Below, one piece after another: positions 15,980 through 42,734 of a stretch of DNA of 45,014 nt. Position numbers and translations under genes: made by a program. The stretch is from Polyangiaceae bacterium. GTDB taxonomy: Bacteria > Myxococcota_A > Polyangia > Polyangiales > Polyangiaceae. A model generated the notes under the pieces. It was not told where the DNA came from. It searched no databases and worked only from the letters and a program-made list of their open reading frames with translations. Every line of letters starts with the position of its first letter. The stretch's first letter is position 1. Location: NCBI GenBank assembly GCA_033763455.1, contig JANRKO010000057.1, positions 1-45,014 of the forward strand, written 5' to 3'.

Positions 15980-16200
15980 GCGGGGCTCGCTGTATTTAGG
16001 ATCGGAGCGGTTGGGTGGCCAGCCTAGGTCACGACTCGCGGTTTGGTCCACGAGGCGGGCCAATTCTTGGTCGGCCTTAGAGCGGTCGGTTTCGGGCGGG
16101 CCATCGGGTCTAGAACTTAGGCCAATGTGGCTCATTGTGTTAGTGGAGGGGCTTGCCCTAGGCTCGCGCCGAACACTTGGCGTCACTTCGGAGGAAGATC

Positions 16201-19604: not shown

Positions 19605-19738
19605 GCCAAATCAGATATCTATCACGGTCCTCGCATTCCAGAAACAAAACGGAAACCCCAAGTAAGGCGTTTTTAGCCGGTTTTCCTAGCTTGGACCCAC
19701 GGCCGCTGGTAAAACGTGGGTGGTTTTGGAGGCGCACC

Positions 19739-26004: not shown

Positions 26005-26541
26005 TTAACCAACCCCCTCCGCGATCGGGTTTTGGTACACAACGTCCATTGAAAGGCTGATGCCGAGCGATTTTAGCTCGATCGACTGACCGCGGCGTGC
26101 CTCCCAGATTTCCCATTGGCCGCTCTCGCCTCGCCGTTGCACTTCAATCCGGGGCTCATCTTGCGCTAGAAAAACGAGCTCTTTGAGGGAAGCCAATTGC
26201 CGATAGTGCGCAGACTTGGTGCCCCGATCGTATCCCTCCGTCGATTCAGAGAGCACTTCCACTATCACCACAGGATTGGTGATGGCATGCTTGCTTTCAG
26301 GTGCCGTCTTTAATTCTCCGCAGACAACGCTCACATCTGGATAGGTGTGAAGAGCTGTTGCATCAATGTAGATGGCCGCGTCTGAAGAAAATACTCGGCA
26401 GGGTTTGCCACGAAGAGCGACACCAAGCTCCCGCATAAGCGCGGCGGCCAAAGCCGCATGCTCTGGAGTGCCCCCAGCCACAGCAAAGACCTCGCCCCGC
26501 AAGAATTCATGCTTTTCGGTCGCCCTTTGCTCAAACTCCAC
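26005..26541 (-). CDS. Uma2 (DUF820) family PD-(D/E)xK endonuclease-like protein, possibly N-terminally truncated
   Basis: KHEFLRGEVFAVAGGTPEH, YPDVSVVCG and NPVVIVEVLSESTEGYDRGTK. Confidence 0.85.
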   Translation of the reverse strand: MEFEQRATEKHEFLRGEVFAVAGGTPEHAALAAALMRELGVALRGKPCRVFSSDAAIYIDATALHTYPDVSVVCGELKTAPESKHAITNPVVIVEVLSESTEGYDRGTKSAHYRQLASLKELVFLAQDEPRIEVQRRGESGQWEIWEARRGQSIELKSLGISLSMDVVYQNPIAEGVG

Positions 26542-27118: not shown

Positions 27119-28855
27119 TCATTGGGCGTTCGATTCCGTAACGCGCTGCGCATCCAGAATACGATACGCTGCCCAATGCACGGGCGCGTTTTTCGCGGCC
27201 AGGCGATCGACAAAAGCAAGCCAGGCGGCTTGTGGTGGGGAAGAGAAACGAGAGACTAGCTGGAGCTGCAACATCTTTCGTGATGCGTCCGGTTCCCCAA
27301 GGGCGGCCTGCCTAACTTGTTGCACCAAGGCCTCAGGGTAACGCTCCACCGGACGACCCGCAGCGTTAGTTTCTACAACCAGCAGCGTCGGTGGGCGTCC
27401 TCGGACGGCTTGCTCAAGAAATAGGTGCGGGTAGGTCCAGCTGGCGTCGACTCCTTGCAAGCCTCCGTATACCTCGGGCGCAGAGGCCAAATCTTGCACC
27501 ACGCGCTGGGGCCGCTCCCGCCGAACCAGCTCAAGCAACGCCTCCACGCTAGCTGCGCGCTTATCATTCCACAGCGTTGGGTACCAGAAGAACGGCCTTA
27601 CAAGGAACGCTCCGGCCAGGGTAGCGGCTGCGGCAATCGTCCAAAATCTGCCAGGAGCCCAGTGCTCACGCGTGCGATTTGTTCCGAGCACCACTGCCGA
27701 CATGAGACCAAGCAAGCATAGGTCGAGCGCTAACTGCCCCCACGCGCCGTAGCGCCCCAACACAATGGCTATGGCGCTCACCAGCATGGAATGAACAAAC
27801 AAGCGTCGGAACTCAGGTGCTGATTGCACCCATAGGCTGACGCCTAGAGCAATGAATACGGCGACAACAGGAGCGGTAGGCGTGTAGTTGCGCGCATTGA
27901 CGGCGGCCACGGCGTGCCCATCAGGCAGACCGAGCCAGCCTTTAGGAAAGACTACCAGCGTATTCAGGAGCAAATAGTGAATGCCGATCGTTCCCACTAA
28001 CAACAACAATGTGAAGCGGTCGTTCTTTGAAGAAAATAGCCTCGGAGCACCAAAAATCCCAACGAAGAGCCAGGGCAATGCTGGCGCGGCTAACACGGCT
28101 GGCAACCCGCTGAGCACGTTGTAACGCAAAACGCCTGAAAGGCCCCAGCTCCGAAAGGAGGCGTAGGAGCTGTGACTAAACCAGAACAGATCGTGAGACG
28201 CTAGAATGCCAGCGCCCACCCAGAGAACAAACGGTAACCCTGCCAAGACTAGCGGGAGCCACCAGCCCCAGCGCCGGATGCTGCTAGCATCGCGTTCGCG
28301 CCAGCAAGCGAGCGCCAGCCACGCGCCGATGAATCCCGTCACCGGCAACATTTCCGCGCGACAAAGTGGCACAAGGCCCGCACAAAGACCGGCCAATGCG
28401 CGCTTTTGGTGCACGAGGCATAACCAAAGCGAGAGCGCGACGAAGAATGCCGCGGGCACTTCGGTCATGGTGACAAAGGCGTCTTTCAATACGGCCATTT
28501 GTGCCGCGAAAAATACCACCGCAAACCAGAGCCCATTCGCCAAATGAGTTGGAACTAACCGTTGGCAGAGCAGTGCGGTAAGGAAGCCCGTTGCCACCGT
28601 TAGCCCGACGCTCACTAGGCGGGCAGCGTGTAGGCCCAGAAGCCCTGCCACACCGTAGAGCAAGCCAGTAAGAGGCTTGTTCCAAACGTCCAGGAGCCAG
28701 GCGCTCACGTTCAAGGTCGAGACTTGCTGGAAGCTGCGGGCGAAGTGCTGGTACGAGTCGTCGTCTAACCGCAAGCCGCTTACCAAGCTCGCGCACGTTA
28801 GCAGTACCAGGAGAACCCCTAGTGCGACGTGTAGCCGAGACTGCTCCGTTAACAA
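27119..28855 (-). CDS. Polytopic membrane protein, probable GT-C glycosyltransferase
   Basis: First TM then LDDDSYQH, WNKPL, MTEVPAA and PLCRAE motifs, about 12 TMs. Confidence 0.68.
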   Translation of the reverse strand: MLTEQSRLHVALGVLLVLLTCASLVSGLRLDDDSYQHFARSFQQVSTLNVSAWLLDVWNKPLTGLLYGVAGLLGLHAARLVSVGLTVATGFLTALLCQRLVPTHLANGLWFAVVFFAAQMAVLKDAFVTMTEVPAAFFVALSLWLCLVHQKRALAGLCAGLVPLCRAEMLPVTGFIGAWLALACWRERDASSIRRWGWWLPLVLAGLPFVLWVGAGILASHDLFWFSHSSYASFRSWGLSGVLRYNVLSGLPAVLAAPALPWLFVGIFGAPRLFSSKNDRFTLLLLVGTIGIHYLLLNTLVVFPKGWLGLPDGHAVAAVNARNYTPTAPVVAVFIALGVSLWVQSAPEFRRLFVHSMLVSAIAIVLGRYGAWGQLALDLCLLGLMSAVVLGTNRTREHWAPGRFWTIAAAATLAGAFLVRPFFWYPTLWNDKRAASVEALLELVRRERPQRVVQDLASAPEVYGGLQGVDASWTYPHLFLEQAVRGRPPTLLVVETNAAGRPVERYPEALVQQVRQAALGEPDASRKMLQLQLVSRFSSPPQAAWLAFVDRLAAKNAPVHWAAYRILDAQRVTESNAQ

Positions 28856-28977: not shown

Positions 28978-29901
28978 ATGCCCTCGCTCAAAACCACCCC
29001 TGACGAGATTGTGCGCTGGCTCGGCCTGCGGTTTCGTGTCCCGTGTGATTGGCAGATGGTGCGCCACAGCAAAAACCCCGAGAAGGGCTCGGTGGTGTTT
29101 GTGGATAGGCGGCGGGAGCGATTAGAGGTGCACTGGCAAGATTGTTCGAACGAGCCGGATCTAGAACGCATGGTTGATAACCAGCGCTCGTTAGCGAAAA
29201 AGCAGGATCCTGAGGCGCACACAGAGTTTCTGCGGGGGCTCGGCAATTGGCGCGGGCTGCGCACGCAATCTAAAGGGGCCGTGTTGAGCCGGGCTGTGCG
29301 TTTTGATCCGAAGACGCAACGCTTGGTGGATTTGGTCGTAAGTTCCTCGGAAGACGAAGACGTGAGCGATTTTTTTCCGTGGTTCTGCCGACACGTTGAA
29401 GTTGAGGCCAAAGGCCCTGACGCGTTGCGGTGGGCCTGCTTTGACATCGATCTCACCATGCCCGAGGGCTACAGGTTGCGCGATGCGGACATAAAGCCGT
29501 GCGACGCCTCTCTCGAATTTGAAGAAGTTGAGGCCGAAGGTGAGGCGCGGGTGCGAAGGCGCATCCGAGTCCGCCGGTTGGGTTTGGTCGACTCTTGGTA
29601 CACAGGCGATCCCGCGGGGCTGCTCCGGGCTCAGTCCGCCAAGCTAAGATTCAACGAGTTTACCCAACTCACGGAGGGGACTCATCCGGCGACCGAAGGC
29701 CGCGCGGTCGAGCCGACCACCTTAATCCCTAGGCTTGCCGGCCGGCAGGTGCATGCTCGGGTGCGGCTTTGGCATTGCGAGCCAGAAAACGCCTTGTACG
29801 AGGTCACATGCTCGGGCTATCGGAGTGCGCCCAATTGGCCCACCGATTTGAAGGTACACTGCCGCCCCCACGACCATGACCCGGGCTCCCGAGAAGCTTG
29901 A
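28978..29901 (+). CDS. Hypothetical soluble protein with apparent internal duplication (first gene of transporter operon)
   Basis: Two similar segments, WLGLRFRVPCDWQM and WACFDIDLTMPEGYRL. No signal peptide or TM. The stop overlaps the next gene. Confidence 0.65.
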   Translation: MPSLKTTPDEIVRWLGLRFRVPCDWQMVRHSKNPEKGSVVFVDRRRERLEVHWQDCSNEPDLERMVDNQRSLAKKQDPEAHTEFLRGLGNWRGLRTQSKGAVLSRAVRFDPKTQRLVDLVVSSSEDEDVSDFFPWFCRHVEVEAKGPDALRWACFDIDLTMPEGYRLRDADIKPCDASLEFEEVEAEGEARVRRRIRVRRLGLVDSWYTGDPAGLLRAQSAKLRFNEFTQLTEGTHPATEGRAVEPTTLIPRLAGRQVHARVRLWHCEPENALYEVTCSGYRSAPNWPTDLKVHCRPHDHDPGSREA

Positions 29902-30256
29902 TCCCTCTCAGATGCTCGATCTGGTGCCTGCCGCCAATCGTGCGGTCCGGGCGGAAGAGCGCGGTCAGACTCTGATCCTCTACGTTCCGATTCAGCGGCG
30001 CTGGTGGATGCGTGGTCCGTTCGGGTGGCTGCTTCCGTTTCGAAAGGAGAAGGGGATTGCCCTCGACTCCTTAGGGCGAGAGGTCTGGGAAGCTTGTGAT
30101 GGCACGCGCACGATTGAGGATATCGCTGAGGGTTTTGCCGCGCGCCACCGCGTGAGATTTCATGAAGCGAAGCTAAGCGTCACCACCTTCCTGCGTTCGC
30201 TCGTTGAGCGCCGGGTCGTGGTGCTCGTGCTTACGGAGCCGGTGAACAGCCAATGA
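29876..30256 (+). CDS. PqqD-family / RiPP recognition element (RRE)-like protein
   Basis: LDSLGREVWEACDGTRTIEDIA...AKLSVTTFLRSLVERRVV is the PqqD winged-helix signature. Confidence 0.85.
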   Translation: MTRAPEKLDPSQMLDLVPAANRAVRAEERGQTLILYVPIQRRWWMRGPFGWLLPFRKEKGIALDSLGREVWEACDGTRTIEDIAEGFAARHRVRFHEAKLSVTTFLRSLVERRVVVLVLTEPVNSQ

Positions 30257-31722
30257 AGGCGATTGTTGCAAAGAGTCAGGTGGCCCTAGGGCCTGCTCGG
30301 GGTGCCCAGCTTGCGCTTTCCGGCATGTCGTACCGGATGTTTCGCTCTGCAGTTACGATCGCGATCTTGGCGCTCGCCACCGCCTTTCTCGTGCACATGT
30401 TGGTTTATGGCCTTTTAGCGGGTCAAACCGAGCGAAATGCCTACCGTGATCTGCAGCGGTTGCGCGCGTTTGGCGAACAGATCACCCGCCTCGCGCATGT
30501 GGATGCGCCGACGAAGATCATGGCCACCTTGGCCGCGGGTGAGCCGTCGCGCTTGCGTGAATACCGCGGCTGGGCCAAGGGCGATGCGAGCGAGTTTGAC
30601 CGCGCTCATCGTGTCGCTGAACGCCTCTCACGTGTTCGCCAGTCGCTCGTGGAATTGCCGCCCACCGCGCAAGCTGTGCTGCTTGGTGATCTCACAGCGG
30701 ACGAACTCCTTGAGTCTCTTCGTCAACCGGAGCAGCTCACGTTGTTCACCAAGAAGCTCGCACAACTTCAGCTCGGCTCCCAAGCAATCGATCAAGTCGA
30801 GCTCGTGCGTTTGGTAAGCACGGAAATGGGCGCGTTGCACGACGTGACGGCTCGCATCGGTGCGGGGCATCTCGCAGCTGTGACCAGCTTTGCGGCTCAC
30901 TATCCTGAAAAAAGTGCGGAGGTGATCGCGGCGGAGCCCCCAGCTGATTTTGAGCGCACGCTCCAGAAACTAGGGTTTTTCAAGGATGCGGAGCTCTCGG
31001 AGCTCGCAGCATTCGCGAGCAATGCCCGCGACGAGCGCACCATCGGGGAGCTTCTGCTAGAGGCGGATGTTCGCAGCCAAGTCGCTCGCGAGCTGAACCT
31101 TTTGCCCAAAGATGTCGATCTCAAGAAGACTCTCGCGTATGCGGCGGACGGTGGGCACGCAGAATGGTTGGCGGGTGTGCTCGCTCAGGTAAGCGCTCCC
31201 AAGAACCTTACCGGTGAACGAGTACACGAGCTGGCCGAAGCGTACGGTCGTCGCTCAACTCTAGAGGAGATGCTCGGAGATCGCGTGCCAAATGACGGCG
31301 GGGGTTTCTTGGGTTTGCCCGAAAGGCTGCGTTGGTTGGTGGTGCTTTCTTTCTTGGTGTGCGTTGTTGGCGTGGCCAATGCCATGTTGATGAGCGTTAC
31401 CGAGCGTTTCACTGAAATCGCCACGATGAAGTGCCTGGGGGCGATGGACGGCTTTGTGATGATGATGTTCGTGTTTGAGGCGGCTATTCAGGGCGTGATT
31501 GGCGGCCTGGCTGGCCTCGTGCTTGGGTTATTGCTGGCGGCGTTACGCGGAGCCGTTGAATATGGTGGCCTGTTTTTCGCATTCGACGGCATGGGGCTGC
31601 AGCTTCTTCTTGCAACGCTGCTTTCCTTGTTGGTGGGTGTCGTCCTGGCTGCCTTGGCGGCGGTAGGCCCGTCCTGGGTCGCGGCCCGCCTCTCACCGAT
31701 GGAAGCAATGCGGGTCGAATAA
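30253..31722 (+). CDS. FtsX/MacB-type (type VII) ABC permease
   Basis: N-terminal TM, large extracytoplasmic domain, GVANAMLMSVTERFTEIATMKCLGA and AARLSPMEAMRVE. ATGA overlap with the PqqD gene. Confidence 0.9.
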   Translation: MKAIVAKSQVALGPARGAQLALSGMSYRMFRSAVTIAILALATAFLVHMLVYGLLAGQTERNAYRDLQRLRAFGEQITRLAHVDAPTKIMATLAAGEPSRLREYRGWAKGDASEFDRAHRVAERLSRVRQSLVELPPTAQAVLLGDLTADELLESLRQPEQLTLFTKKLAQLQLGSQAIDQVELVRLVSTEMGALHDVTARIGAGHLAAVTSFAAHYPEKSAEVIAAEPPADFERTLQKLGFFKDAELSELAAFASNARDERTIGELLLEADVRSQVARELNLLPKDVDLKKTLAYAADGGHAEWLAGVLAQVSAPKNLTGERVHELAEAYGRRSTLEEMLGDRVPNDGGGFLGLPERLRWLVVLSFLVCVVGVANAMLMSVTERFTEIATMKCLGAMDGFVMMMFVFEAAIQGVIGGLAGLVLGLLLAALRGAVEYGGLFFAFDGMGLQLLLATLLSLLVGVVLAALAAVGPSWVAARLSPMEAMRVE

Positions 31723-32483
31723 TGCAGGAAATGCGCCCCAGAGAGGCTCCGAAGAAAGCCGTCATCATCCGCACGCTTGGGCTCGAGAAGAGCTACGGCA
31801 TGGGTGATGCCACCACCTATGCTTTGCGGGGTGTCGCCGCCACTATCTACCGCTCCGAATTCATTGCCGTAATGGGCCCTTCGGGCTCCGGCAAGAGCAC
31901 CTTCTTCAACATGATCGGCGCACTCGATGCGCCTAGCAAAGGGCGTATTCTGATCGACGAAGTGGATGTGGCTCAGCTTTCCGCTGTTGAGCTCGCTTTC
32001 CTTCGCTGTCAGAAGATCGGCTACATCTTTCAGAGTTACAACCTCATCCGCTACATGACGGCACTTGAGAACGTTACCGTTCCGATGACGTTCGCGGGCG
32101 TGGTGCCCGAAGAGGCTCGGCGCCGTGGCCTCGATCTTTTGGAGCTCGTAGGCTTGAAGGAGCGCTGGGCGCACAGGCCAAGCGAGATGAGCGGCGGCCA
32201 ACAACAACGCGTGGCAATCGCCCGGTCTATGAGCAACAACCCCAAAATCCTCTTGGCAGACGAGCCCACAGCCAATCTCGATTTCAAAACGGGGCAAGAT
32301 ATTCTTGAGATCCTGCAGCGTATTAATCGAGAGCGGGGCGTTACCATCGTGTGCTCGACACACGACCACCGTCTGTTGAACGTTTGCGATCGCATCATGT
32401 GGATTCGTGATGGCCTCGTCGAACGCGTTGAGGAGCGAGAAAACATTCGGATCAAGCTCGGTACCATCGGCGGTGAAGCATGA
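31722..32483 (+). CDS. ABC transporter ATP-binding protein (LolD/MacB-type)
   Basis: [25 protein letters not shown] and STHD. TAATG overlap with the permease. Confidence 0.95.
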   Translation: MQEMRPREAPKKAVIIRTLGLEKSYGMGDATTYALRGVAATIYRSEFIAVMGPSGSGKSTFFNMIGALDAPSKGRILIDEVDVAQLSAVELAFLRCQKIGYIFQSYNLIRYMTALENVTVPMTFAGVVPEEARRRGLDLLELVGLKERWAHRPSEMSGGQQQRVAIARSMSNNPKILLADEPTANLDFKTGQDILEILQRINRERGVTIVCSTHDHRLLNVCDRIMWIRDGLVERVEERENIRIKLGTIGGEA

Positions 32484-35400
32484 GACATTGGTTGCGAATC
32501 GTCGCAGTACTTTTGCTGGCCTTAAGTGGTTCTTGGATTTGTGGGTCGCTTTTGGCCCACGCCGAAGACGCGCCGCAGAAAAGCGCTGATCCATCGGTTG
32601 TCTCACAGGGAACTCCTTCGTCCGCGTCCGCAGCGGGGGCACCGTCGGTGTCAGAGCAGGCTGCAGCGGGTGCGGGGGGCGCCGCTCAGATTGCTGATCG
32701 ACCGCTGACTCGAGAGGAGAACGCTTTTCTTTTTGACCTCCAACAGCTTACCAAACATCCGCACCGCTTAGCCGGCTCGCGCAATGGTTTTGAGGCGGCC
32801 GAGTACATTACGGCTCAGCTTGGGCACATGGGCCTCCAAACGTTCTTTGTCGACATGCCCGTGTGGCAGATGGAGACCGAGCGGTCGGAACTCTTGGTTA
32901 ACGGGCAGCGAGTTCAGGTTCACACCATGAGGCCCAATATCTCGGCCCTGTCCGTTACAGGTCCCGAGGGCGTGAGTGGGCCGCTGCGCTATGTCGGAAA
33001 AGGAACCTTGGAGGCCTACGGTGAGCGCGGGGTGGAGGGCGCTATCGTTGTGCTTGACTACGATAGCACCGGAGGCTGGCAACGTGCGTTTGCGTACGGT
33101 GCCAAGGCTGTGCTGTTCTTGGGCCATGGCGACGCCGTTGCGTCCGAGCCGAGAAATTCCGGCGTTCCCGCCAACTGGGTGCGGGCCTATGTTTCGGCGG
33201 ATCAGACCGCGGTCGATCTCACGCGCGATTACGACAAGGCCGAGCTCTTCATTGAAGGTCGCTGGCGGCGCACGGAAGGTCGAAATATTGTCGCGCGCAT
33301 TGCCGGCACCGCACCGGGCTTCGCCGGTGAAGGGGGCCAAGCTGAAGCCGTGGTGCTCTCTGCCAATTACGATACTTTTGGGGTCGTCCCGGAGCTTTCG
33401 CAAGGAGCACGGGGTGCAGCGAACGTGGCGGCGCTGTTAGAGGCCGCACAGGTGCTCAAACAAAACCCACCCAAACGCGACGTTATCCTGATGTTTTTGG
33501 ACAATCAGGCGCGTTACCACCAGGGTGCACGGGAAGTCTACGAAGCGTGGTTGTCCGATGCGGATGAGCTCACGCGTCGCGGCGAGGAGCACAGAAAAGA
33601 GTTGCTCCATGTGCGCGCGATGTCGCTTTTGCTTGAGAAGAATGGGCTCCTGTTCGATCGCGCCCCGGAGCCGCCGGGCGGTGGAGCCGCCAAGATTTGG
33701 CTCAAGCGCGCCCTGGTAGAAGCAGCCAATTTTAAGCGCGACGACGTGCGAAAGATCGTGGAGGTGATGCGCCTCAAAGCGGGGCGTGCTGGAGCCGTCG
33801 AGATTGCTCCCGAGGTTCGTCGCTTGGAGGCTGAGGCCCTGCGTTGGGACGAAATCCGACGAGCGCTTCATCAAGGTGCGCTTTCGGCCTTTGTTGAAGG
33901 TCAGGCGCGTGGCGGTGCAAACAAAGGAGAGGCCAAGCTCTACCAGACTCTCTTCCAACAACTTCAAGCAGCCTCAGGTTCACGTTTTAAGAAACGCCTG
34001 AATGAGCTCACCGCTCTGGTCGAAATGGACGATCAGAAGGTTGCGTTGCGCAAGGTGCTGGCCCCCGAGGGCAAGCCGCTGTTTATCGTGTTCCACGCGC
34101 AATATAATCTTTCGGATGGTGGCGCCACGTGGGGTGTTGTTGTCGGGGATTGGACCTACGCCCTCACGCCGTGGCGCTTACCGGCGGCTGGCACGGACGC
34201 TCCCGGGTATTACGGTGGGCTGCTCGGCGCGTTGCGCGCGACCTCAAGCCTCATTCCCCAAACGGTGAACCAGCTCGATCCCAGGACACTCACCGATCCC
34301 CTCTTTGGTCTCACGTTCGCGCCCGCGCCGTTTGCAGTTTCCAGTTCGATCGCCGGCACCTACGGCATCTACAACTTTGCTCTCATGAGCGGTGCTGATC
34401 GTCGTCCACGTGACGGGCAGCCTACCGACACGTTAGGCCGTTTGAACTGGGCCAGAGTTGAGCGTCAGGGGCTCGAAGCCACCCATCTCATGGCGGCCGC
34501 TGCGAGCTCCGCTGAAGTATCCTTGCCCCGAGTGCTCGCCGCGCAGAAGTTGAGTCGATACCCCACCTGGGACAGCGGCTCTCAAGGGGGAGATTACGCG
34601 GGGCTACAGGTCAGCGGGAGCCTGGCTGAAGATCGCCCCGCCGGCGGCGCCATGATTGCGTTGTGGCCGGGCAGTATAGCCTTTGCAGGTGCGGGAGAAG
34701 CTTGGTCGTCTTTGAAGGACGCCCAGGTTATTGCTGATTTTGAGCCGTTTGCGCTCGAGCCCGTGGATCAGAACGGTCGCTTTCGTCTGCTGGGGCTTCG
34801 GAACGATGTCCACTCCGAGATCATGGTGCTCGGCAGCTTGTTCGACCCAAATGGACGCATTCAAGCCATTAGCACGCAAGAAGGACAGGTGAAGCTCGCC
34901 ACCGAGCTTATTCGGAGCAACCTCTTCTTTGGTGAACAATATCGTTGGATGGCGCGTCGCGGCTTCGAGAGTGACCCGAAGCGCTTCAAGCTGCTCAAGG
35001 CCAATTCAGACTCGGCCTTCAGGACGAACCGTTCGCTCTGGGGGCAGCTAGGCGATCAGTATTTCGCCTATGTGTCGGATCAGATTGTCGATCGCCGGCT
35101 CAAGGTGTTCCAGGTGATGGGTGCTGCCGCGCTTGGCCCCTTCTCACCAAAGTCTCCGTACGGATCTGGGCTCGATCCAAAGGAAGTTTCTGGGAGCTTC
35201 TCGATTGCAGACAACTCCGCCAACGATCTCTGGAATCTGAACGAGGCTCGCCTAGGGCAGCTTCGGGTCCGCGGGGTGACAAGCCCCGACATTGAAGTTT
35301 TGCACAGCCGTGCGCTTCGCATCAAAGAACAAGCTAAAGCGGAGCCAGATCTTGCCAAGCAGGCAGGCGCGTTCGCTCGAAGTGCGGCGCTTTCACAGCG

Positions 35401-37531
35401 GGTCTATCTCCCGCTTCGCAATACGATGGATGATTTGGTGCATGCCATCGTGATGCTGCTCCTCCTTGCTATTCCGTTCGCGTTTGCACTTGAGCGCCTG
35501 ATTGTGTGCGCTACCACGATCTACGGGCGTTTGGCCGGCTTTACCGGGATGTTTTTGGGCACCTTTGGGCTTTTGTACTTCATGCATCCGGGCTTCGCGA
35601 TTGCAGCAACGCCGGTCATTATCTTCTTGGCGTTCGCCATTTTGCTGCTTTCGAGTTTGGTCATCTACATCGTTGTCAGAAAGTTCAAGACGGAGCTCAA
35701 GGCCATGCAGGGGCAAGCTTTGGGTGTTCACGGCCTTGAAGTTTCGCGCATGGGAACCATGTTGGCGGCGGTTGGCATGGGTATGTCCACGATGCGGCGG
35801 CGCCCAACGCGCACCACATTAACGGCCATCACGGTTGTGATTCTGACCTTTACGACGCTCGTATTCGCATCGTTTAGCCAGAAGGTTGGGCTCCGCACTA
35901 CCTACGAGGGCCCGAAGAGCCCGCACACGCGGTCATCCATTGCGATGCACCAGCTGGATTACTCCCCGTTACCGGAAGGCGTGAAGGATCTTGTATTTGG
36001 CCAGGAAGGTGTAGGCGGCCTGGTGGCCCCGTATTACTGGCTGACGAAAGATACCAAGAACAAAGCCGTAGACGTGCGTTTCTCTGTGGCTCGCGCTGAC
36101 GACGGGCGCTCCATGGCGATTGATGCTGCCATGGGTATTTCGGATGCTGAAGTGCCTCGTTGGCCGGAGCTTACTGCCACATTGGGTGAGGGAACCCCTG
36201 AGGCCAAGCGCCTTCGGCTGAAGTCTGGAGCGGTATTTTTGCCGCCCATCGTTACCGATGTACTTGAGCTCAAAGTGGGCCAGGCAATCTTGGTGAATGG
36301 CCAGCCTGCCACGTTCGGCGGTTCAGTGAATACGGCCGAGCTTCAGCGTTTGAAGCACGTGGATGGGCACAGCGTGCTGCCGGTGGATTTTCAAGCGTTG
36401 GAAAGCGGCCCAGCTCAAATTCAGGCTGACAAGAGCGAAACGGAACTTGCATTCGCCCAAGATGTGGCCCGTGATTTTGTGCATCTGAGTGCCGATCAAG
36501 TCATGATTGCCTCGTCGGATTTCGTCCAACGCTTAGGCGGCAAGCTTTTTGCGCTGGGTATCTACCCGGGCGAAGGCGTGGATGTTCAGGCACGGGGCCG
36601 AGAGTTAGCCGAGACACTGGTGATGCCGGTTTGGGCTGCCGGGCCATCGGGTGTCGAGCGGCTACTCCTCACAGAACTCACGGAGGTGTCGGGAGGATTT
36701 GCTCTGTTCGTTCCGCTCCTGCTTGGCGGCTTGATCATCTTCGGCACGCTGCTCGGATCCATCAGCGACCGGGAGCGCGAGATCTACACTTTCTCGGCGC
36801 TTGGGCTGTCCCCTGGGCACGTAGGCGTACTGTTCTTCGCCGAAGCCGCCGTCTACGCCGTGGTCGGCGGTATGGGTGGGCAGCTTTTGGCTCAGTTCGT
36901 GGCTTTGGGCGCATCGGCTCTCGCCAAGGCTGGCTACATGAAGCCTGCGGCGATCAATTTCTCGTCCACGAATTCGCTCTTCGCGATTGCTGTGGTGATG
37001 CTCACGGTGCTGGTCTCAGCTGTTTATCCGGCTGTGCGAGCCTCCCGCAGTGCCAACCCGGGTTTGGCACGAGCATGGCGGTTGCCCGCTCCCGAGCAGG
37101 ATGATCTGAAGCTGAAGTTCCCCTTCACGGTGTCGGCTTATGACATCACAGGGGTAGTAAGCTTCTTGGCTGAACACTTCCGCGCTCACGACGATGCCGG
37201 TCTGGGTAGCTTTGCGGCGTCGGACGTGAGCATTCGTCGCGGAACGCAGGGCAACTTGGAGCTCACCGGGCGTTTTGCGTTGGCTCCTTTTGACCTTGGT
37301 GTAACCCAACACCTAACGCTCATGGCGGCGCCGTCTGAGATTGAAGGTGTGGATGAAGTGGCCATCCATGTGCACCGCGAAAGCGGGGCTAGCAATGATT
37401 GGTTCCGTGCCAATGGCGTGTTCATGCGTGATCTTCGGCAACAATTCCTGCTGTGGCGTACGCTTTCGAACGACATGATCGAGCACTACCGCATGGAAAC
37501 ACTCAAAACTTTGGGGCCAAACGAGGCCTAG
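32480..37531 (+). CDS. 1683-aa fusion: signal peptide + degenerate M28 peptidase/PA domain + TM bundle + FtsX-type permease
   Basis: HRLAGS, GPLRYVG, RNIVARIAG, VVLSANYD and VAALLEAA (M28 fold), followed by RRRPTRTTLT-TM and GSISDREREIYTFSALGL (FtsX). ATGA overlap. Confidence 0.85.
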   Translation: MRHWLRIVAVLLLALSGSWICGSLLAHAEDAPQKSADPSVVSQGTPSSASAAGAPSVSEQAAAGAGGAAQIADRPLTREENAFLFDLQQLTKHPHRLAGSRNGFEAAEYITAQLGHMGLQTFFVDMPVWQMETERSELLVNGQRVQVHTMRPNISALSVTGPEGVSGPLRYVGKGTLEAYGERGVEGAIVVLDYDSTGGWQRAFAYGAKAVLFLGHGDAVASEPRNSGVPANWVRAYVSADQTAVDLTRDYDKAELFIEGRWRRTEGRNIVARIAGTAPGFAGEGGQAEAVVLSANYDTFGVVPELSQGARGAANVAALLEAAQVLKQNPPKRDVILMFLDNQARYHQGAREVYEAWLSDADELTRRGEEHRKELLHVRAMSLLLEKNGLLFDRAPEPPGGGAAKIWLKRALVEAANFKRDDVRKIVEVMRLKAGRAGAVEIAPEVRRLEAEALRWDEIRRALHQGALSAFVEGQARGGANKGEAKLYQTLFQQLQAASGSRFKKRLNELTALVEMDDQKVALRKVLAPEGKPLFIVFHAQYNLSDGGATWGVVVGDWTYALTPWRLPAAGTDAPGYYGGLLGALRATSSLIPQTVNQLDPRTLTDPLFGLTFAPAPFAVSSSIAGTYGIYNFALMSGADRRPRDGQPTDTLGRLNWARVERQGLEATHLMAAAASSAEVSLPRVLAAQKLSRYPTWDSGSQGGDYAGLQVSGSLAEDRPAGGAMIALWPGSIAFAGAGEAWSSLKDAQVIADFEPFALEPVDQNGRFRLLGLRNDVHSEIMVLGSLFDPNGRIQAISTQEGQVKLATELIRSNLFFGEQYRWMARRGFESDPKRFKLLKANSDSAFRTNRSLWGQLGDQYFAYVSDQIVDRRLKVFQVMGAAALGPFSPKSPYGSGLDPKEVSGSFSIADNSANDLWNLNEARLGQLRVRGVTSPDIEVLHSRALRIKEQAKAEPDLAKQAGAFARSAALSQRVYLPLRNTMDDLVHAIVMLLLLAIPFAFALERLIVCATTIYGRLAGFTGMFLGTFGLLYFMHPGFAIAATPVIIFLAFAILLLSSLVIYIVVRKFKTELKAMQGQALGVHGLEVSRMGTMLAAVGMGMSTMRRRPTRTTLTAITVVILTFTTLVFASFSQKVGLRTTYEGPKSPHTRSSIAMHQLDYSPLPEGVKDLVFGQEGVGGLVAPYYWLTKDTKNKAVDVRFSVARADDGRSMAIDAAMGISDAEVPRWPELTATLGEGTPEAKRLRLKSGAVFLPPIVTDVLELKVGQAILVNGQPATFGGSVNTAELQRLKHVDGHSVLPVDFQALESGPAQIQADKSETELAFAQDVARDFVHLSADQVMIASSDFVQRLGGKLFALGIYPGEGVDVQARGRELAETLVMPVWAAGPSGVERLLLTELTEVSGGFALFVPLLLGGLIIFGTLLGSISDREREIYTFSALGLSPGHVGVLFFAEAAVYAVVGGMGGQLLAQFVALGASALAKAGYMKPAAINFSSTNSLFAIAVVMLTVLVSAVYPAVRASRSANPGLARAWRLPAPEQDDLKLKFPFTVSAYDITGVVSFLAEHFRAHDDAGLGSFAASDVSIRRGTQGNLELTGRFALAPFDLGVTQHLTLMAAPSEIEGVDEVAIHVHRESGASNDWFRANGVFMRDLRQQFLLWRTLSNDMIEHYRMETLKTLGPNEA

Positions 37532-37543
37532 CAGGGACTGAAG

Positions 37544-39646
37544 ATGGCGGACGTGCGACCCAAAACACCCGGATTTTTCAGCCGAAAGCACCGTGCGGAT
37601 ACGGAGCTCGAAGAGTTCCGTTCGCTCATGAAGGCACCTGGAACCTTCGAGGACGGCTTCAGTTGGACGGCATTCGCGGGGGCACTGTTCGTCGCGATGC
37701 TCATGGTGCCAGGCTCCATCTACATGACCCTAATTGCGGGTCTTTCGATTGGCCCAGCAGCGCAATGGGTGACGGTTATCCTGTTTATCGAAGTAGCTCG
37801 TCGCGCGAACAAGCACCTGCGTCGTGCCGAAATCTTCACGCTCTTCTATTTGGCTGGCGCCATCATCGTTACGGCCTCGATGGCACAAGGCCAGTTTCAG
37901 GGGGGCCTCGGTGCTATCTGGGCGCAGTTTTTCGCGCAATCCGATGCTGCTCGTGCTGCCGGTATCGCGGAGAAGCTTCCAACATGGATCGTGCCGACCG
38001 ATCCTGCCGTTCTCGATCAACGCTCCCTGCTGCTGCCTGAGTGGCTGCCGGTGATTGGCCTAGTGGTTTTCACTATGGTGATTGGGCGCATCGACAACAT
38101 GATCCTCGGCTACGGCCTCTTCCGCCTGACCAGTGATATCGAGAAGTTACCGTTTCCAATGGCTCCTGTTGGCGCTCAGGGCATCATGGCGCTCTCGGAG
38201 GAGCAAGACAGCGAGACAAGTGCGCGTGAAGGCACAGCGCTTGGCGAAAATACGGCGCAACAGGCTTCCTGGCGTTGGCGCGTATTTTCAATTGGCAGCG
38301 TGCTCGGGATCGTGTTTGGAGCCATCTACATTGGGATCCCAACCGTAACCGGTGCCTTGCTCGACAAGCCCATCACGATTTTGCCGTTGCCGTTTAAGGA
38401 CTTCACCTCGCAAACCGGGCAGTTCTTGCCGGCGGCAGCGATCGCAATTTCCTTCGACCTCGGCATGCTGCTCTTGGGCATGGTGCTTCCCTACTGGGCT
38501 GCTGTGGGTACGTTTGCGGGGCTCGTTATTACGCTCTTGCTCAACCCCATTCTGCATCTACCCGAGATCGGGATTTTGAAATCCTGGAACCCGGGGGACA
38601 ACATGCAGACCACGTTTTACAAGAACCAGATGGACTTCTATTTCAGCTTCGCCATCGGAGTTGGAATGGCGATAGCCATCGCCGGCTTCGTCTCGGTGGG
38701 TAAGGCTTGGGCGGCGGAGCGCAAGCGTTCCAAGCTTACGGGGCCTCGCAGCCGAATGGCGGCGTTCGATATCCCAGCTGGGCGTGGTGATATCAGGACA
38801 GCCGTGATTATCGCGACGTATTTGGGCGTCATGGCCATGTACATCACCGTCTCCACCTGGCTGCTCTACTTGGCTGACGGCGCCGTTTATTGGCCAGTCG
38901 TTGGCGTGATGCTGTTTTACGCGATTATCTACACGCCGATCGTGAGCTACGTCACTGCTCGCCTCGAAGGCATCGCCGGCGAGGTGCTGAATATTCCGTT
39001 CGTGCGTGAAGCAAGCTTCATCTTCTCGGGCTACCATGGCGTTGCCATTTGGTTCCTGCCCATCCCGCTTCACAATTACGGGGCCATGACGGTGTTTTAT
39101 CGGCAGTGCGAGCTCACAGGCACGCGCTTCTGGTCGATTTGGAAGAGCGAAATCTTGCTCACTCCCATCATCGTCGGCGGCTCGCTCCTGTTCGCCCATT
39201 TCATCTGGGGCCTCGGTCCGATCCCAAGCCCGCAGTACTTGTTCGCCCAAGAGTGGTGGGAAGTCACCGCCGCCCAGCAGTCCATCATCTTCTCCTCCAC
39301 GTTGGGTGGCTTTACGGAGTTTGAAGCGGCATTCAATGGCAACTACATCTTGGCGGGGTTGGGGGTGGGAGGTGTTCTGTTCGCGGCATTTGCCTGGCTC
39401 GGCGCACCGACATTCTTCATCTACGGCATTGTTCGAGGGTTAAACCAGACGCTACCGTTCGTGGTGATCCCGCAGTTTATCGGAGCCCTGATTGGGCGGT
39501 TCTACTTCAGGCGGCAGTTCGGGTTGGTCTGGCGCCAGTATGTCCCCGTGGTTTTCGCCGGTTTCGCCTGCGGCATGGGCCTTATCGGCACGCTCGGCAT
39601 TGGAGCCACATTCGTGTCTAAGAGCGTTTTTACGCTCCCCTTCTGA
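37544..39646 (+). CDS. OPT (oligopeptide transporter)-like polytopic membrane protein
   Basis: 700 aa with about 16 hydrophobic segments, FSWTAFAGALF N-terminus and an EKLPFP motif reminiscent of the OPT/YSL family. Confidence 0.65.
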   Translation: MADVRPKTPGFFSRKHRADTELEEFRSLMKAPGTFEDGFSWTAFAGALFVAMLMVPGSIYMTLIAGLSIGPAAQWVTVILFIEVARRANKHLRRAEIFTLFYLAGAIIVTASMAQGQFQGGLGAIWAQFFAQSDAARAAGIAEKLPTWIVPTDPAVLDQRSLLLPEWLPVIGLVVFTMVIGRIDNMILGYGLFRLTSDIEKLPFPMAPVGAQGIMALSEEQDSETSAREGTALGENTAQQASWRWRVFSIGSVLGIVFGAIYIGIPTVTGALLDKPITILPLPFKDFTSQTGQFLPAAAIAISFDLGMLLLGMVLPYWAAVGTFAGLVITLLLNPILHLPEIGILKSWNPGDNMQTTFYKNQMDFYFSFAIGVGMAIAIAGFVSVGKAWAAERKRSKLTGPRSRMAAFDIPAGRGDIRTAVIIATYLGVMAMYITVSTWLLYLADGAVYWPVVGVMLFYAIIYTPIVSYVTARLEGIAGEVLNIPFVREASFIFSGYHGVAIWFLPIPLHNYGAMTVFYRQCELTGTRFWSIWKSEILLTPIIVGGSLLFAHFIWGLGPIPSPQYLFAQEWWEVTAAQQSIIFSSTLGGFTEFEAAFNGNYILAGLGVGGVLFAAFAWLGAPTFFIYGIVRGLNQTLPFVVIPQFIGALIGRFYFRRQFGLVWRQYVPVVFAGFACGMGLIGTLGIGATFVSKSVFTLPF

Positions 39647-39666
39647 GGAATACGGGTGAGGCGCTC

Positions 39667-40458
39667 ATGAGCATGATTACCGATACAAATACTGCGGCCG
39701 ACTCAGCTGTGCGCGGTGCACGCCTCATCCGTGTGGAGGGCGTGTCCAAGATTTACCGCCTCAAACGCGAGGTTGTGTACGCCCTCAATCAGGTCAGCTT
39801 GGAGATTTTCAGGGGGGAATACCTCTCCATCATGGGCCCATCTGGGTCAGGCAAGAGCACGTTATTCAACATCGTGGGCGCGCTCGATCGTCCGAGCGAG
39901 GGCTCCGTGCGCATTGGCCCGCTGGACCTCACCACGCTTGGCAGCCGCGAGCTGGCGTACGTTCGCTGCAACTACATCGGCTACGTATTTCAGGCGTATA
40001 ATCTCATCCCTTCGCTCAGTGCTCTTAAGAATGTCGCTTTGCCACGCGTGTTCATGGGTGCGAGCCAAACAGACGCCGACGCAATCGCGACCAAGCGGCT
40101 AGAGCAGGTTGGGCTCGGCCATCGGCTGGAGCACCGCCCCGGCGAGCTTTCCGGTGGGCAGCAACAGCGCGTGGCCATCGCTCGCGCGCTGGTGAACGAT
40201 CCCACCATTATTTTGGCGGACGAGCCCACCGCCAACCTCGACCTCACCACCGGCGGCGAGATTATCGAGATCTTGAAGGGCTTAAGCGTCGATCACGGCG
40301 TTACCATCATCACGGCCACCCATGACCATAAGATGCTGAAGAACTCGGATCGAGTCATCAACATCCGCGATGGAAGAATCGAGAGTGTGAAGCTGCGCGA
40401 TGAGCTCAACATTCAAGAGGGTGAGATCGAAATCGGCGGCGCAGCCGTCGCGCACTAG
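39667..40458 (+). CDS. ABC transporter ATP-binding protein (LolD/MacB-type), paralogue of 31722-32483
   Basis: [24 protein letters not shown] and ATHD. Confidence 0.95.
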
Positions 40459-40856: not shown

Positions 40857-42734
40857 ATGTCCCCAAAAGAACGTTCGCCTGACGGCCTCACCGCAGAGGC
40901 AGCTTCAAACGCGCAAGTTTTACTTCGCTTGTTAAAGCTCGCCTGGCGGCACCGCGTGCGGTGTCTCCTGGTTCTCAGCCTCCAGTCGCTGTTGCTTCTG
41001 CTCGGGGTCTGGGGTCTCAGCTTTGGCGGCATTGGCGTAGACGTGATCCGCCATCATCTGCAGGCGGGTGCGCCGCTGCCGCGCTGGCCCCTTGGGTTAG
41101 CTCCCCCCGCAAGCCTAGATACCTGGCACACGTTGCTGGCGTTGAGCGGTCTTATCTTAGCTATGGCACTCTTTCGCGGGTGCCTCACCTACGTGTATTC
41201 GATTCAGGCGGGCAAGCTGGTTCATATGGACGTTGTGCCCGCAGTGCGTGCAGACGTGTATGCGAAGCTGCAACGGCTGAGTTTTAGGTTTTTTGACGCT
41301 CACGCTAGTGGATCCATCATTAATCGCGTCACGCGCGATGTTCAGCTGTTGCGTTCCTTTGTTGATGGCGTGGTTATTCAGGGCGTCATCATGGCCCTCT
41401 CTTTGCTGCTCTACGCGGCCTATATGTTTCTGACCCATCCTGGGTTAACGGCGGCAAGCTTAATTCTGTCGCCTGTTTTGGCGATTATTACGAATCGCTT
41501 TTCCAAGTGGGCGCAACCAGAATACGCAAAGAATCGCAAGCTGGTGGACGACATGGTGCTGCGCATTGCGGAGGGCACCAAAGGCATTCATGTGCTAAAG
41601 GTGTTTGGTCAGGAGCGGAAAGAGCACGAGCGCTTTGTCGAGCGGAATCTGGCCGTGAAGGAGCAGCAAACAGCCATCTTTCGAGCAGTGAGCGTGTATG
41701 GCCCTTCGGTCCAGTTCTTGAGCCAATTGAACGTTGCCGTACTGCTCGGCTACGGAGGCTGGCTGGTTTGTGAAAAGGAGCTCACGCTTGGCAGCTTGAT
41801 CGTCTTTACTGGGCTTCTGCAGCAATTCGGCGTGCAGGTGCGTACGATGGCCACGGTGGTGGATGTGCTACAGCAGAGCCTCAGCGGGGCTCGGCGTGTA
41901 TTTGAGGTGTTAGACGCACAGGTTGAGGTTCAAAGCCCGAGCGCGCCGGTGCGTCCGAGCCGCATCCAGGGTGCTCTTAAGTTTGAGAACGTTTCATTTG
42001 CGTTTGGTCCGGAGCAAGCAGCGCTTAACGATATCACTTTTGAGCTGAAGCCGGGGCAGTGCGTCGCGATCTTGGGAGGCACAGGGTCGGGGAAGAGCAC
42101 GTTGCTCAGCCTAATCCCAAGATTCTACGATCCGACGGCAGGTAGGGTCTTGTTGGATGGCGTTGACCTTCGTTCGCTCGACCTCGATATTCTGCGCAGA
42201 AACGTCGGAGTCGTGTTTCAAGAGAGTCTGCTCTTTAGCGCTACCGTTGCCGAGAATATTGCATTCGGAAAGCCGGACGCGAGCCAGGGCGATATTGAGC
42301 GCGCAGCCAAAGTTGCCCGCGTTCACGATTTCATCATGAGCCTGCCCGAAGGATACAATACGCTCCTGCAGGAAGCGGCTACCAATCTTTCGGGTGGTCA
42401 GAAGCAGCGCATTGCAATTGCCCGTGCCATTCTGTTAGAGCCGGCAATCTTGCTTCTGGATGATCCCACCGCTTCGGTGGATCCGGATACCGAGCACGAG
42501 GTGCTTGAGGCCGTGGATAGCGCAACAGCGAATCGCACCACGTTCATCGTGGCCCATCGCTTGAGCACGCTGCGCCGAGCAGACATCATTTTGGTGCTCA
42601 AGGACGGGCGTATTGTGCAGCGTGGCACACATGCGGAGCTCATGGAGCAAAGTGGGCTTTATAGTCGTACGGCTCGGCTCCAAACCGGGGATTTTGACGA
42701 CCTCGGGTTGTTGGCCTCTGGAGGAATTTCGTGA
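40857..42734 (+). CDS. Type IV ABC exporter, TMD-NBD half transporter with degenerate Walker B
   Basis: 6-TM TMD, GGTGSGKST, LSGGQKQR, ILLLDD and VAHR. Confidence 0.93.
   Translation: MSPKERSPDGLTAEAASNAQVLLRLLKLAWRHRVRCLLVLSLQSLLLLLGVWGLSFGGIGVDVIRHHLQAGAPLPRWPLGLAPPASLDTWHTLLALSGLILAMALFRGCLTYVYSIQAGKLVHMDVVPAVRADVYAKLQRLSFRFFDAHASGSIINRVTRDVQLLRSFVDGVVIQGVIMALSLLLYAAYMFLTHPGLTAASLILSPVLAIITNRFSKWAQPEYAKNRKLVDDMVLRIAEGTKGIHVLKVFGQERKEHERFVERNLAVKEQQTAIFRAVSVYGPSVQFLSQLNVAVLLGYGGWLVCEKELTLGSLIVFTGLLQQFGVQVRTMATVVDVLQQSLSGARRVFEVLDAQVEVQSPSAPVRPSRIQGALKFENVSFAFGPEQAALNDITFELKPGQCVAILGGTGSGKSTLLSLIPRFYDPTAGRVLLDGVDLRSLDLDILRRNVGVVFQESLLFSATVAENIAFGKPDASQGDIERAAKVARVHDFIMSLPEGYNTLLQEAATNLSGGQKQRIAIARAILLEPAILLLDDPTASVDPDTEHEVLEAVDSATANRTTFIVAHRLSTLRRADIILVLKDGRIVQRGTHAELMEQSGLYSRTARLQTGDFDDLGLLASGGIS

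Follow-up and report, generated by a model that had tools for sequence, protein, structure and literature searches.

To our knowledge, only a few kinds of partner protein are understood for type VII ATP-binding cassette (ABC) systems, namely TolC pumps, LolA, EnvC and amidases, TesA and BceS. Here we describe a seven-gene operon, encoding a motor of this type together with partners of another kind, in a 45,014-nucleotide stretch of DNA from a Polyangiaceae bacterium (contig JANRKO010000057.1 of assembly GCA_033763455.1, positions 1 to 45,014; this whole stretch is hereafter the window). PMC12646458 describes type VII ABC systems as doing mechanical work on the periplasmic side, typically with no substrate passing through the membrane, and as usually taking their function from the partner protein; FtsEX-EnvC is its paradigm of a motor that controls periplasmic hydrolases. 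Like MacAB-TolC, LolCDE-LolA, FtsEX-EnvC, YbbAP-TesA and BceAB-BceS, the operon encodes two FtsX-fold modules, each consisting of a first transmembrane segment (TM1), an outer domain and TM2-4, along with ATPases of the MacB/LolD/FtsE type, and, as with LolC and LolE, its two permeases differ from one another. Unlike those systems, it has no conserved membrane-fusion protein, TolC, LolA or EnvC-like partner. Its periplasmic partner is instead fused in, as a predicted dead peptidase head of about 900 residues that combines the M28 fold with a protease-associated (PA) domain, and the giant permease that bears it also has an extra TM bundle and, at its C terminus, a novel cytoplasmic domain. OPT-type permeases and a cytoplasmic module containing a recognition element (RRE) for ribosomally synthesized and post-translationally modified peptides (RiPPs) are the constant partners, none of them described for the superfamily in the papers searched. 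These parts very probably constitute an eight-part, single-copy inner-membrane system made up of a type VII ABC motor, two permeases of the OPT superfamily and the RRE module.

The seven genes lie on the + strand at window positions 28978-40458 and are all ATG-initiated in the open reading frame (ORF) calls. Their junctions, in order, are -26, -4 (ATGA), -1 (TAATG), -4 (ATGA), +12 and +20 nt, and a 398-nt gap separates the last gene from the next ones downstream. An initial annotation, made from the letters of this DNA alone, had recognized these genes and junctions with coordinates and distances that proved exact. Its assignment of two type VII permeases, two ATPases and an RRE/PqqD protein is borne out by the family matches given below, but it overlooked both the dead peptidase head and the fold of the first gene product. 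The genes, with the names used here, are as follows.

28978-29901, + strand: g307, 307 amino acids (aa), predicted tandem PsbP/Mog1-like protein and probable partner of the RRE protein
29876-30256, + strand: PqqD-like RRE protein, 126 aa, PF05402, overlapping g307 by 26 nt
30253-31722, + strand: FtsX489, 489 aa, type VII ABC permease
31722-32483, + strand: ATPase1, 253 aa, ABC ATPase of the MacB/LolD/FtsE type
32480-37531, + strand: the giant, 1683 aa, with head, extra TM bundle, FtsX module and C-terminal domain
37544-39646, + strand: OPT700, 700 aa, polytopic, distant OPT relative
39667-40458, + strand: ATPase2, 263 aa, ABC ATPase of the MacB/LolD type

The operon is single-copy and complete in the source genome, counting an unlinked DUF6785 gene described below. 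Its GC content, overall and at third codon positions, equals that of the neighbouring genes, and composition therefore shows no sign of recent transfer. Across the whole window, Rfam gave 0 matches and ARAGORN 0 tRNAs, and promoter and terminator scans performed no better than on shuffled sequence.

The motor core is well supported as a heterodimeric type VII (MacB/FtsX-type) ABC assembled from FtsX489, the FtsX module of the giant and the two ATPases. FtsX489 matches FtsX (PF02687) at 54.4 bits over residues 363-482 (cut-off 25.5) and has the topology TM1, outer domain of about 300 aa, TM2-4, with hydrophobic segments at 29-57 and 357-479. Its matches in the PDB are MacB (E 2.9e-10), LolF, LolC/E and FtsX, and those of the two permeases together span MacB, LolC/E/F, FtsX and YtrF. 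The corresponding module of the giant scores 36.2 bits against FtsX (residues 1407-1523) and is 38% identical to FtsX489 over 52 aa. ATPase1 and ATPase2 match ABC_tran at 109.1 and 113.3 bits, respectively, are about 50% identical to each other by tblastn, and have a canonical Walker A, signature, Walker B and H-loop, according to motif definitions that we take as standard and applied to both.

Each of these proteins falls short of the models for characterized systems. The nearest NCBIfam models of the ATPases are LolD, MacB, DevA, DarD and FtsE, at 190-223 bits and all below the equivalog cut-offs; the best is LolD TIGR02211 (213.3 bits for ATPase1 and 222.9 for ATPase2, cut-off 307.75), and FtsE gives 191.7 and 193.4 bits against 264.85. 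For the permeases the nearest models are MacB (41.6 against 966), LolCE (TIGR02212, 41.7 against 362.45) and FtsX_Gneg (29.1 against 255), all far below their cut-offs. Pfam sequence models gave no PF12704 (MacB_PCD) match in the window's two permeases; that domain occurs in 21% of the members of related Atlas clusters of giants. A HlyD-type adaptor or outer-membrane factor was absent from the window ORFs scanned, from 45 flank proteins of related loci and from the conserved flank families. Judged by these scores and this gene content, the operon is probably neither a MacAB-TolC, nor a LolCDE, nor an FtsEX system.

A genome-collection scan with OPT700 as query returned 52 related loci (labelled L below), many of which end at contig edges. 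The complete seven-gene order of the window is found in 21 of them, and most of the others are interrupted by contig ends. The giant is followed by OPT700 in 47 of the 52 loci, OPT700 by an ATPase in 39, and the order FtsX-ATPase-giant is kept in 34; PqqD precedes FtsX in 27 and g307 precedes PqqD in 24. Across loci the intra-operon junctions are overlaps or short gaps, mostly below 100 nt, and sequence identity across phyla is about 80% for the ATPases and 61-74% for OPT700. The loci are labelled Polyangiaceae/Polyangiales/Myxococcales, Phycisphaerae and other Planctomycetota, Verrucomicrobia, Lentisphaeria, Kiritimatiellae and Sumerlaeia. Thus the initial annotation was right that this is a genuine multi-component gene set, as its proposed neighbourhood check now bears out, and its mention of similar sets in the Planctomycetes-Verrucomicrobia-Chlamydiae (PVC) group agrees with these labels and with the phylum samples described next. 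For the archaea that it also mentioned, the Atlas gave rows below threshold.

Three such samples indicate how often the system occurs. OPT700 is present in 15 of 101 genomes of the Planctomycetota sample (the phylum of L010), the system in 14 of 121 genomes from the phylum of L029's genome, and in 1 of 151 from the window's own phylum, the one being the source genome itself. Cultured carriers exist, for example Phycisphaera mikurensis NBRC 102666, which has a 65% identical homologue of OPT700. A quick maximum-likelihood tree, built from 35 OPT700 sequences and rooted only at the midpoint, places the eight Myxococcota rows in one group (Shimodaira-Hasegawa-like approximate likelihood-ratio support, SH-aLRT, 100) among PVC sequences. 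The pattern is consistent with a single transfer from a PVC donor into a myxobacterial lineage, the direction not being proven.

The flank family comparison revealed no additional gene family common to more than 3 of the 52 loci; the unit therefore lacks a conserved partner of the membrane-fusion, outer-membrane, enzyme or precursor kind. The families of the operon do recombine into other arrangements: L046 has the order FtsX-ATPase-ATPase-DUF-giant-OPT, L055 and L056 have OPT-FtsX-ATPase-ATPase without the giant, L048 has a g307::PqqD fusion on the opposite strand, and L080 (G056:C280) reads DUF-giant-OPT-g307::PqqD-mini-FtsX-one ATPase. Kiritimatiellia loci have one FtsX and two ATPases. This last arrangement and the adjacency of OPT700 and an ATPase in 39 loci led us to consider that ATPase2 docks on OPT700, an idea that we dropped because the L080 variant has two FtsX proteins and a single ATPase.

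The conserved unit is in fact eight-part. Its eighth component is a polytopic protein of about 620-760 aa with DUF6785 and DUF6784 (hereafter DUF6785); the composition proposed in the initial annotation therefore stands for the seven genes seen here but lacks an eighth that is unlinked in this genome. The DUF6785 gene directly precedes g307, giving an eight-gene order, in 13 of the 52 loci, including the Myxococcota-labelled L013, L016, L017, L020 and L035, and lies somewhere in the locus in 25. The source genome has exactly one such gene, on contig 28 at positions 9645-12068 (247 bits), near PhyH, GH113 and AraC genes; its product is 43-49% identical to operon-linked copies versus 20-25% to stand-alone paralogues. 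Co-occurrence holds where linkage does not. Among 21 relatives including the source genome, four carry OPT700 and the same four carry DUF6785 (above cut-off); all are of the window's genus, and the genes are unlinked there. In the Planctomycetota sample, DUF6785 is found in 16 of the 101 genomes, covering all 15 that are OPT700-positive, and g307 in 11, all inside those 16 and with one gene each. As the sampled genomes are kin, these counts overstate independence.

DUF6785 and OPT700 may also be related to each other. The two families align in hhalign with a probability of 81% (E 1.2e-5, 141 columns, a common E-x-L-P-F-P motif) when DUF6785 is represented by a 24-sequence profile and with an insignificant 5% for a 6-sequence profile, so that their kinship is moderately supported. 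DUF6785 is matched 5 to 11 times in each of five multi-copy genomes, against 1 to 4 giants. Among 13 DUF6785 paralogue regions, in which 90 of the 130 called ORFs were scanned, 11 have DUF6785 standing alone, and AraC regulators adjoin it in three of these 11; other paralogue neighbours encode a xylose-isomerase-like TIM barrel, a sulfatase, an amidohydrolase and a peptidase C26. One region, L067 (G091:C1:2759000-2777000), carries at 5561-12138 three tandem DUF6785/DUF6784 genes alongside genes for a xylose-isomerase-like TIM barrel and an AraC regulator; neither FtsX nor ATPase lies nearby. Genome G125 has eight DUF6785 matches and four giants, and no OPT700 match at E<=1e-30; in L078 two of its DUF6785 genes stand immediately before an FtsX-ATPase pair, and in L079 one stands immediately before a giant.

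For the OPT family itself, PMC3061005 reports about 16 transmembrane segments, NPG and KIPPR motifs, fusions of some members to protease domains, and prokaryotic members, encoded next to AraC regulators and a xylanase, that are predicted to import oligosaccharides. Together with PMC12831333, it describes OPT proteins as proton-coupled importers of peptides and metal chelates. OPT700 is like OPT/Yellow-Stripe-like proteins (PF03169, TC 2.A.67) in being polytopic and about 700 aa long. A crude hydropathy scan gives 13 segments for OPT700 and, for OPT700 and DUF6785 alike, is too rough to assign loop sides. The protease fusions and AraC-linked prokaryotic members described in PMC3061005 are precedents. 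Unlike OPT carriers, which are regarded as autonomous proton symporters, OPT700 is encoded with an ABC motor.

The sequence relationship is a distant one. OPT700 itself has no Pfam match even at E<=10, and a single-sequence phmmer search against the PDB returned nothing, but 14 of 35 orthologues match OPT (PF03169) at E<=0.01, the best at E 6.8e-12, so the term OPT-like used in the initial annotation holds as a distant relationship carried by the orthologues rather than by the window protein. In a separate set, 6 of 12 relatives match PF03169, five of them above 25.8 bits and the best at 39.4. There are 2223 relatives at E<=0.001, some named 'peptide transporter' by their source. A family profile search of the PDB reached no OPT or YS1 structure. 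Two relatives deserve separate mention. L021, a second locus in the genome of L019, holds a solitary OPT700 paralogue 67% identical to the window protein, with no further gene of the system inside 10 kb, and the OPT700-type protein of L080 (10859-14122) has 1087 aa, with an insertion of about 430 residues between the equivalents of window residues 581 and 622.

By hydropathy the giant begins with a signal peptide or anchor (3-28) and an ectodomain some 950 residues long, followed by three hydrophobic segments at 982-1070, the FtsX module and a cytoplasmic tail of about 160 residues; besides FtsX, Pfam finds only a partial Peptidase_M28 (28.1 bits). Its regions are as follows.

32705-34522, + strand: head, residues 76-681, predicted PA-domain M28 fold without metal or catalytic residues
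33560-34060, + strand: helical insertion in the head, residues 361-527 (about 170 residues), from the predicted model
34544-35398, + strand: beta-rich domain and helical stalk, residues 689-973, from the secondary structure of the predicted model
35423-35689, + strand: extra TM bundle before the FtsX module, residues 982-1070, from hydrophobic segments
35810-37045, + strand: FtsX module (Pfam FtsX), with TM1 at residues 1111-1134, outer domain at 1135-1400 and TM2-4 at 1401-1522
37067-37528, + strand: cytoplasmic C-terminal domain, residues 1530-1683, from the alignment

Residues 60-978, modelled from an alignment containing 34 orthologues, gave a predicted local distance difference test score (pLDDT) of 91.1 and a predicted template-modelling score (pTM) of 0.91. 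Residues 17-622 of the model form a complete M28 fold with a PA domain (best Foldseek E 6.9e-16), split by long helices (model 302-468) and followed by a beta-rich domain (approximately 630-820) and a helical stalk (841-914). In VIA the head resembles the PA-aminopeptidase 2ek8 (Z 26.5), the Aeromonas aminopeptidase 1rtq (Z 26.4, 257 of 291 residues aligned, root-mean-square deviation 2.8), TfR1 (Z 24.2) and GCPII (Z 22.4), and it shares with 2ek8, BSAP, PaAP and GCPII the full M28 fold plus PA domain (Z 22-26.5). A profile of the head family found 2ek8 at E 4.2e-11 and Nicalin at E 1e-4.

Aligned to 2ek8 by HMMER, the giant family consensus has ayD, RgAAN and nq where the enzyme has HHD, DDASG and EE. 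We take these positions of M28, which are the ones compared, to be zinc ligands or catalytic residues. Every one of the 37 orthologues aligned has replaced the bridging Asp and the Glu-Glu pair, and only a few retain the first His. Because the M28/PA fold is complete and its catalytic motifs are lost, the head is a pseudo-peptidase, predicted to be inactive, like transferrin receptor or Nicalin, which likewise have the M28 fold without catalytic and metal residues. Unlike those two proteins and the PA-aminopeptidases, it is bacterial, periplasmic and inserted into an ABC permease, and it adds the helical insertion of about 170 residues, the beta-rich domain and the stalk.

Conservation within the giant is highest in the extra TM bundle (mean identity of about 0.7 to the window sequence over 37 orthologues), the FtsX helices and the C-terminal domain. 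The last has a mean column identity of 65% and occurs in one copy in the source genome, and it has no relative in the PDB or Pfam. One related Atlas cluster of giants has LysM in 19% of its members; Pfam finds no LysM domain in the giant of the window.

The first two genes of the operon encode what is probably a cytoplasmic module. The product of g307 belongs to no Pfam or NCBIfam family and, by hydropathy, has no hydrophobic segment and no signal peptide. Its AlphaFold2 model (pLDDT 90.3) consists of two domains, the first (4-148) resembling Tli4 (Z 14.0), Mog1 (Z 12.1), PsbP (Z 11.7) and SciW (Z 9.8) and the second (149-297) Apa (Z 12.2) and PsbP (Z 11.3). On this model g307 is predicted to be two tandem domains of the PsbP/Mog1/DcrB/Tli4/Eag class. 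It is also two-domain in the manner of Tli4/TplEi. It is only about 10% identical to the PsbP/Mog1/DcrB/Tli4/Eag (DUF1795-like) proteins and lacks a sequence-family match, and it appears cytoplasmic, whereas most of the fold matches are periplasmic or lumenal. Sharing a PsbP/Mog1-like fold by itself shows no function of g307; immunity against a type VI secretion system, suggested by the best fold match, Tli4, was given little weight because the fold is generic. The family numbers 1347 representatives at 50% identity. At least eight proteins are natural fusions of g307 with a C-terminal PqqD domain (all six of the 422-445-aa representatives checked, plus L029 and L048). As these fusions recur, we argue that g307 and the RRE act together, and the earlier suggestion that the RRE serves as a cytoplasmic adaptor thereby gains support.

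The RRE protein matches PqqD (PF05402) at 41.6 bits (cut-off 23.4), scores below every NCBIfam equivalog cut-off of the PqqD type, and contains a conserved aromatic insertion, RRWWMRGPFGWLLPF, in the family alignment. It is not the PqqD of pyrroloquinoline quinone (PQQ) biosynthesis as far as these data go: TIGR03859 gives 22.4 bits against 46, and no pqq genes lie among the window ORFs scanned. Its nearest solved relatives by family profile are lasso-peptide RREs, 9x90_B (E 4e-4) and TbiB1 (E 4.5e-3), and PqqD. It has the PF05402 domain in common with PqqD and the lasso B1 protein TbiB1; unlike them it has no neighbouring modifying enzyme, carries the aromatic insertion, and occurs coupled with, or fused to, a protein of two tandem PsbP-like domains. 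The source genome has two other PqqD genes, scoring 65.0 and 56.9 bits. One region (L059, C47:179273-182473) combines PqqD with Transglut_core3 (lasso B2-like) and an HPr-kinase-like P-loop protein, and another (L060, C6:357373-360588) combines it with a radical SAM protein and a nucleotidyltransferase. Since these two sit in classical RiPP contexts, the RRE of the operon is probably of a different kind.

The initial annotation saw no RiPP enzyme or precursor around the operon, and wider searching agrees. No radical SAM, YcaO, lasso or other RiPP enzyme is encoded by the 5 flanking and 17 further window ORFs scanned, and no RiPP enzyme is present among the 45 flank proteins, which come from 20 related loci, or as a family in more than 3 of the 52 loci. 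There is no conserved small family among ORFs of at least 70 aa, shorter ORFs not having been searched for a precursor peptide. The related loci are flanked by genes for GH95, galactokinase, sulfatase, gluconolactonase-like, ROK, TonB receptor and GH109-like proteins. Asked in the initial annotation as carbohydrate-active enzymes versus peptidases, the survey thus found several sugar-related genes but no peptidase among the 45 proteins. An SLT transglycosylase adjoins the operon in L011 and L012.

Around the operon, the window contains a pair of genes for MsbA/HlyB-type ABC half-transporters (625 and 610 aa, 40857-44563, + strand) with a 4-nt mutual overlap. By tblastn against the related loci, such a pair follows the operon only in L005-L007, of the same genus, and in L035, and we therefore place it outside the conserved unit. 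A block of envelope-glycan genes at 182-16186 encodes two GT2 glycosyltransferases, three PMT_2 (GT-C) membrane proteins, DUF2079, a SAM methyltransferase, an F5/8 type C domain protein and a PAPS reductase domain protein. Further Pfam families among the scanned window ORFs include porin, kinase and DAHP synthase. A divergent neighbour (27119-28855, - strand) encodes a 578-aa polytopic protein with about 12 hydrophobic segments, which has no Pfam or NCBIfam family and which tblastn found in none of the 52 related loci. Also present are a 1240-aa ORF without a Pfam family at E<=1e-4 (19538-23260, + strand), a putative endonuclease of the Uma2 family (105 bits; 26005-26541, - strand) and a protein with a weak BIM1-like copper-acquisition domain (24787-25938, + strand).

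The initial annotation knew of no functional characterization, and a full-text literature search, with subscription-only papers outside it, likewise found no paper on this gene set and 0 papers on DUF6785, DUF6784, PF20581 or PF20580. Kamneva et al. 2012 (PMC3542564) was considered as a possible description of a PVC operon and set aside, its text lacking the words 'operon', 'ABC' and 'FtsX'. New here are the predicted tandem PsbP/Mog1-like fold of g307, with its natural fusion to PqqD, and the head of the giant as a complete, modelled PA-M28 fold without metal and catalytic residues.

How might such a set of proteins work together? From the parts, their folds, their conservation and their co-occurrence we infer a physical assembly, a direction of transport and a kind of ligand. 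We tentatively read the system as an uptake machine, giving slightly under an even chance to a type VII ABC motor that uses its dead-peptidase head to load OPT-type permeases. The head would bind an extracytoplasmic oligomer, such as a peptide end, a glyco-oligomer or possibly a metal chelate. ATP binding and hydrolysis would then move the head by mechanotransmission and pass the ligand to the OPT-type permeases, which would bring it across the membrane. On the cytoplasmic side the g307-PqqD module may take up the cargo or gate the motor, and the stand-alone DUF6785 paralogues found elsewhere could be further, substrate-specific permeases. Uptake is favoured as the direction because OPT proteins are described as importers, because DUF6785 is multi-copy where giants are few and has paralogues in catabolic-type contexts with AraC regulators, and because the DUF6785 gene of the source genome itself lies near PhyH, GH113 and AraC genes.

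Several points weigh against import by such a machine. All characterized type VII systems expel, extract or regulate, and none is known to aid import (PMC12646458). The relatedness of OPT700 to OPT proteins is distant, with neither a Pfam match of its own nor an OPT structure reached by profile. The system is patchily distributed across the three phylum samples. The flanks are variable and give weak hints, as the hosts are rich in sugar-related genes anyway. A search for longer, fused forms of DUF6785 or OPT700 found none, which is weak evidence. Finally, a cytoplasmic RRE and a chaperone-like fold suit peptide export at least as naturally as uptake.

A bolder form of the uptake proposal, which we consider doubtful, would make the system a hybrid class of primary and secondary transporter. 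Here the motor would use its dead-peptidase head to capture an extracellular oligomer and then load or gate the OPT-fold permeases, the DUF6785 proteins would act as interchangeable, substrate-specific channels served by a single motor, and the PsbP-like/RRE module would be a receiver or a feedback gate.

Export or extraction is unlikely but has the most substantial case among the other explanations. The g307-PqqD module would recognize a cytoplasmic peptide or small protein, the OPT-type proteins would let it cross the membrane, and the motor with its tall head would push it outward; or the motor would extract an envelope component that is lipid-linked or embedded in the membrane. All characterized type VII systems expel, extract or activate periplasmically (PMC12646458); the two ATPases score well, if below cut-offs, against models for DarD (darobactin export), DevA and bacteriocin export; RREs normally bind ribosomal peptides; and the fold class of g307 includes the Eag/SciW chaperones, which hold effector transmembrane segments (the SciW match noted above). 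In the window the operon also adjoins glycosyltransferase genes and the MsbA-type exporter pair, but that neighbourhood is limited to this genus and one other locus. Export would further have to do without a conserved membrane-fusion, TolC-like or cargo gene, for which the gaps inside the operon leave too little room; PMC12831333 and PMC3061005 describe OPT proteins as importers; and the DUF6785 expansions by AraC regulators look catabolic.

We think it improbable that the system is an FtsEX-like regulator or recycler of the cell wall, in which the motor would move the head to control or scaffold peptidoglycan enzymes and the OPT-type proteins would re-import muropeptides or stem peptides. The idea has the FtsEX-EnvC paradigm behind it (PMC12646458), an M28-like pocket could bind stem peptides, LysM occurs in that one Atlas cluster of giants, and the SLT transglycosylase lies beside the operon in two loci. 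A core cell-wall function is nonetheless a poor fit for a system present in about one of seven or eight genomes of the PVC samples, and patchier still in the window's phylum. The giant of the window has no LysM, the FtsX equivalog score is a small fraction of its cut-off, and multi-copy DUF6785 genes in catabolic-looking contexts are hard to reconcile with such a role.

Still less probable is that no single machine exists and that the operon simply co-regulates an ordinary MacB-type ABC with OPT-type carriers that work independently of it. The lack of fused OPT700/DUF6785 forms, the stand-alone position of 11 of 13 DUF6785 paralogue regions and the source genome's tolerance of an unlinked DUF6785 gene would all be expected, but gene order and tight coupling are kept across distant phyla, the giant and OPT700 are adjacent one to one in 47 of 52 loci with similar copy numbers, every OPT700-positive genome of the Planctomycetota sample (15 of 15) carries DUF6785, and the families re-associate in other orders in L046, L055/L056 and L080.

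We give almost no credence to a transport or immunity arm for a RiPP or antimicrobial peptide made by enzymes and a precursor encoded elsewhere in the genome: the PqqD/RRE domain, the service of MacB-type exporters to several peptide natural products, the ATPase scores against darobactin and lactococcin-972 export models and the automatic Atlas name 'antimicrobial peptide transport system permease' speak for it, but no RiPP enzyme turned up in the window ORFs, the 45 flank proteins or the shared families, the other two PqqD genes of the source genome sit by RiPP-type genes and score higher, the operon's RRE is coupled or fused to g307, whose family occurs only in genomes having the system, and conservation across phyla at the levels seen for the ATPases and OPT700 is unlike that of secondary-metabolite clusters. 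Resistance to antimicrobial peptides, suggested by the same Atlas name, was given little weight because the name is generic.

The uptake proposal can be tested directly, as the system is single-copy, complete here and present in cultured bacteria. A partner set of OPT-fold permeases, a fused and predicted dead PA-M28 head, and an RRE with a PsbP-like protein has been kept across at least six labelled phyla or classes. If these parts form one machine, it would link ATP-driven mechanotransmission to secondary carriers, give an RRE a non-biosynthetic role, and supply the first functional context for DUF6785, DUF6784 and the g307 family. If the hybrid transporter class is real, it would be the first ABC-assisted import without a solute-binding protein or a canonical importer fold, and might account for the uptake of large oligomers by PVC bacteria and by those few myxobacteria that have gained the system.

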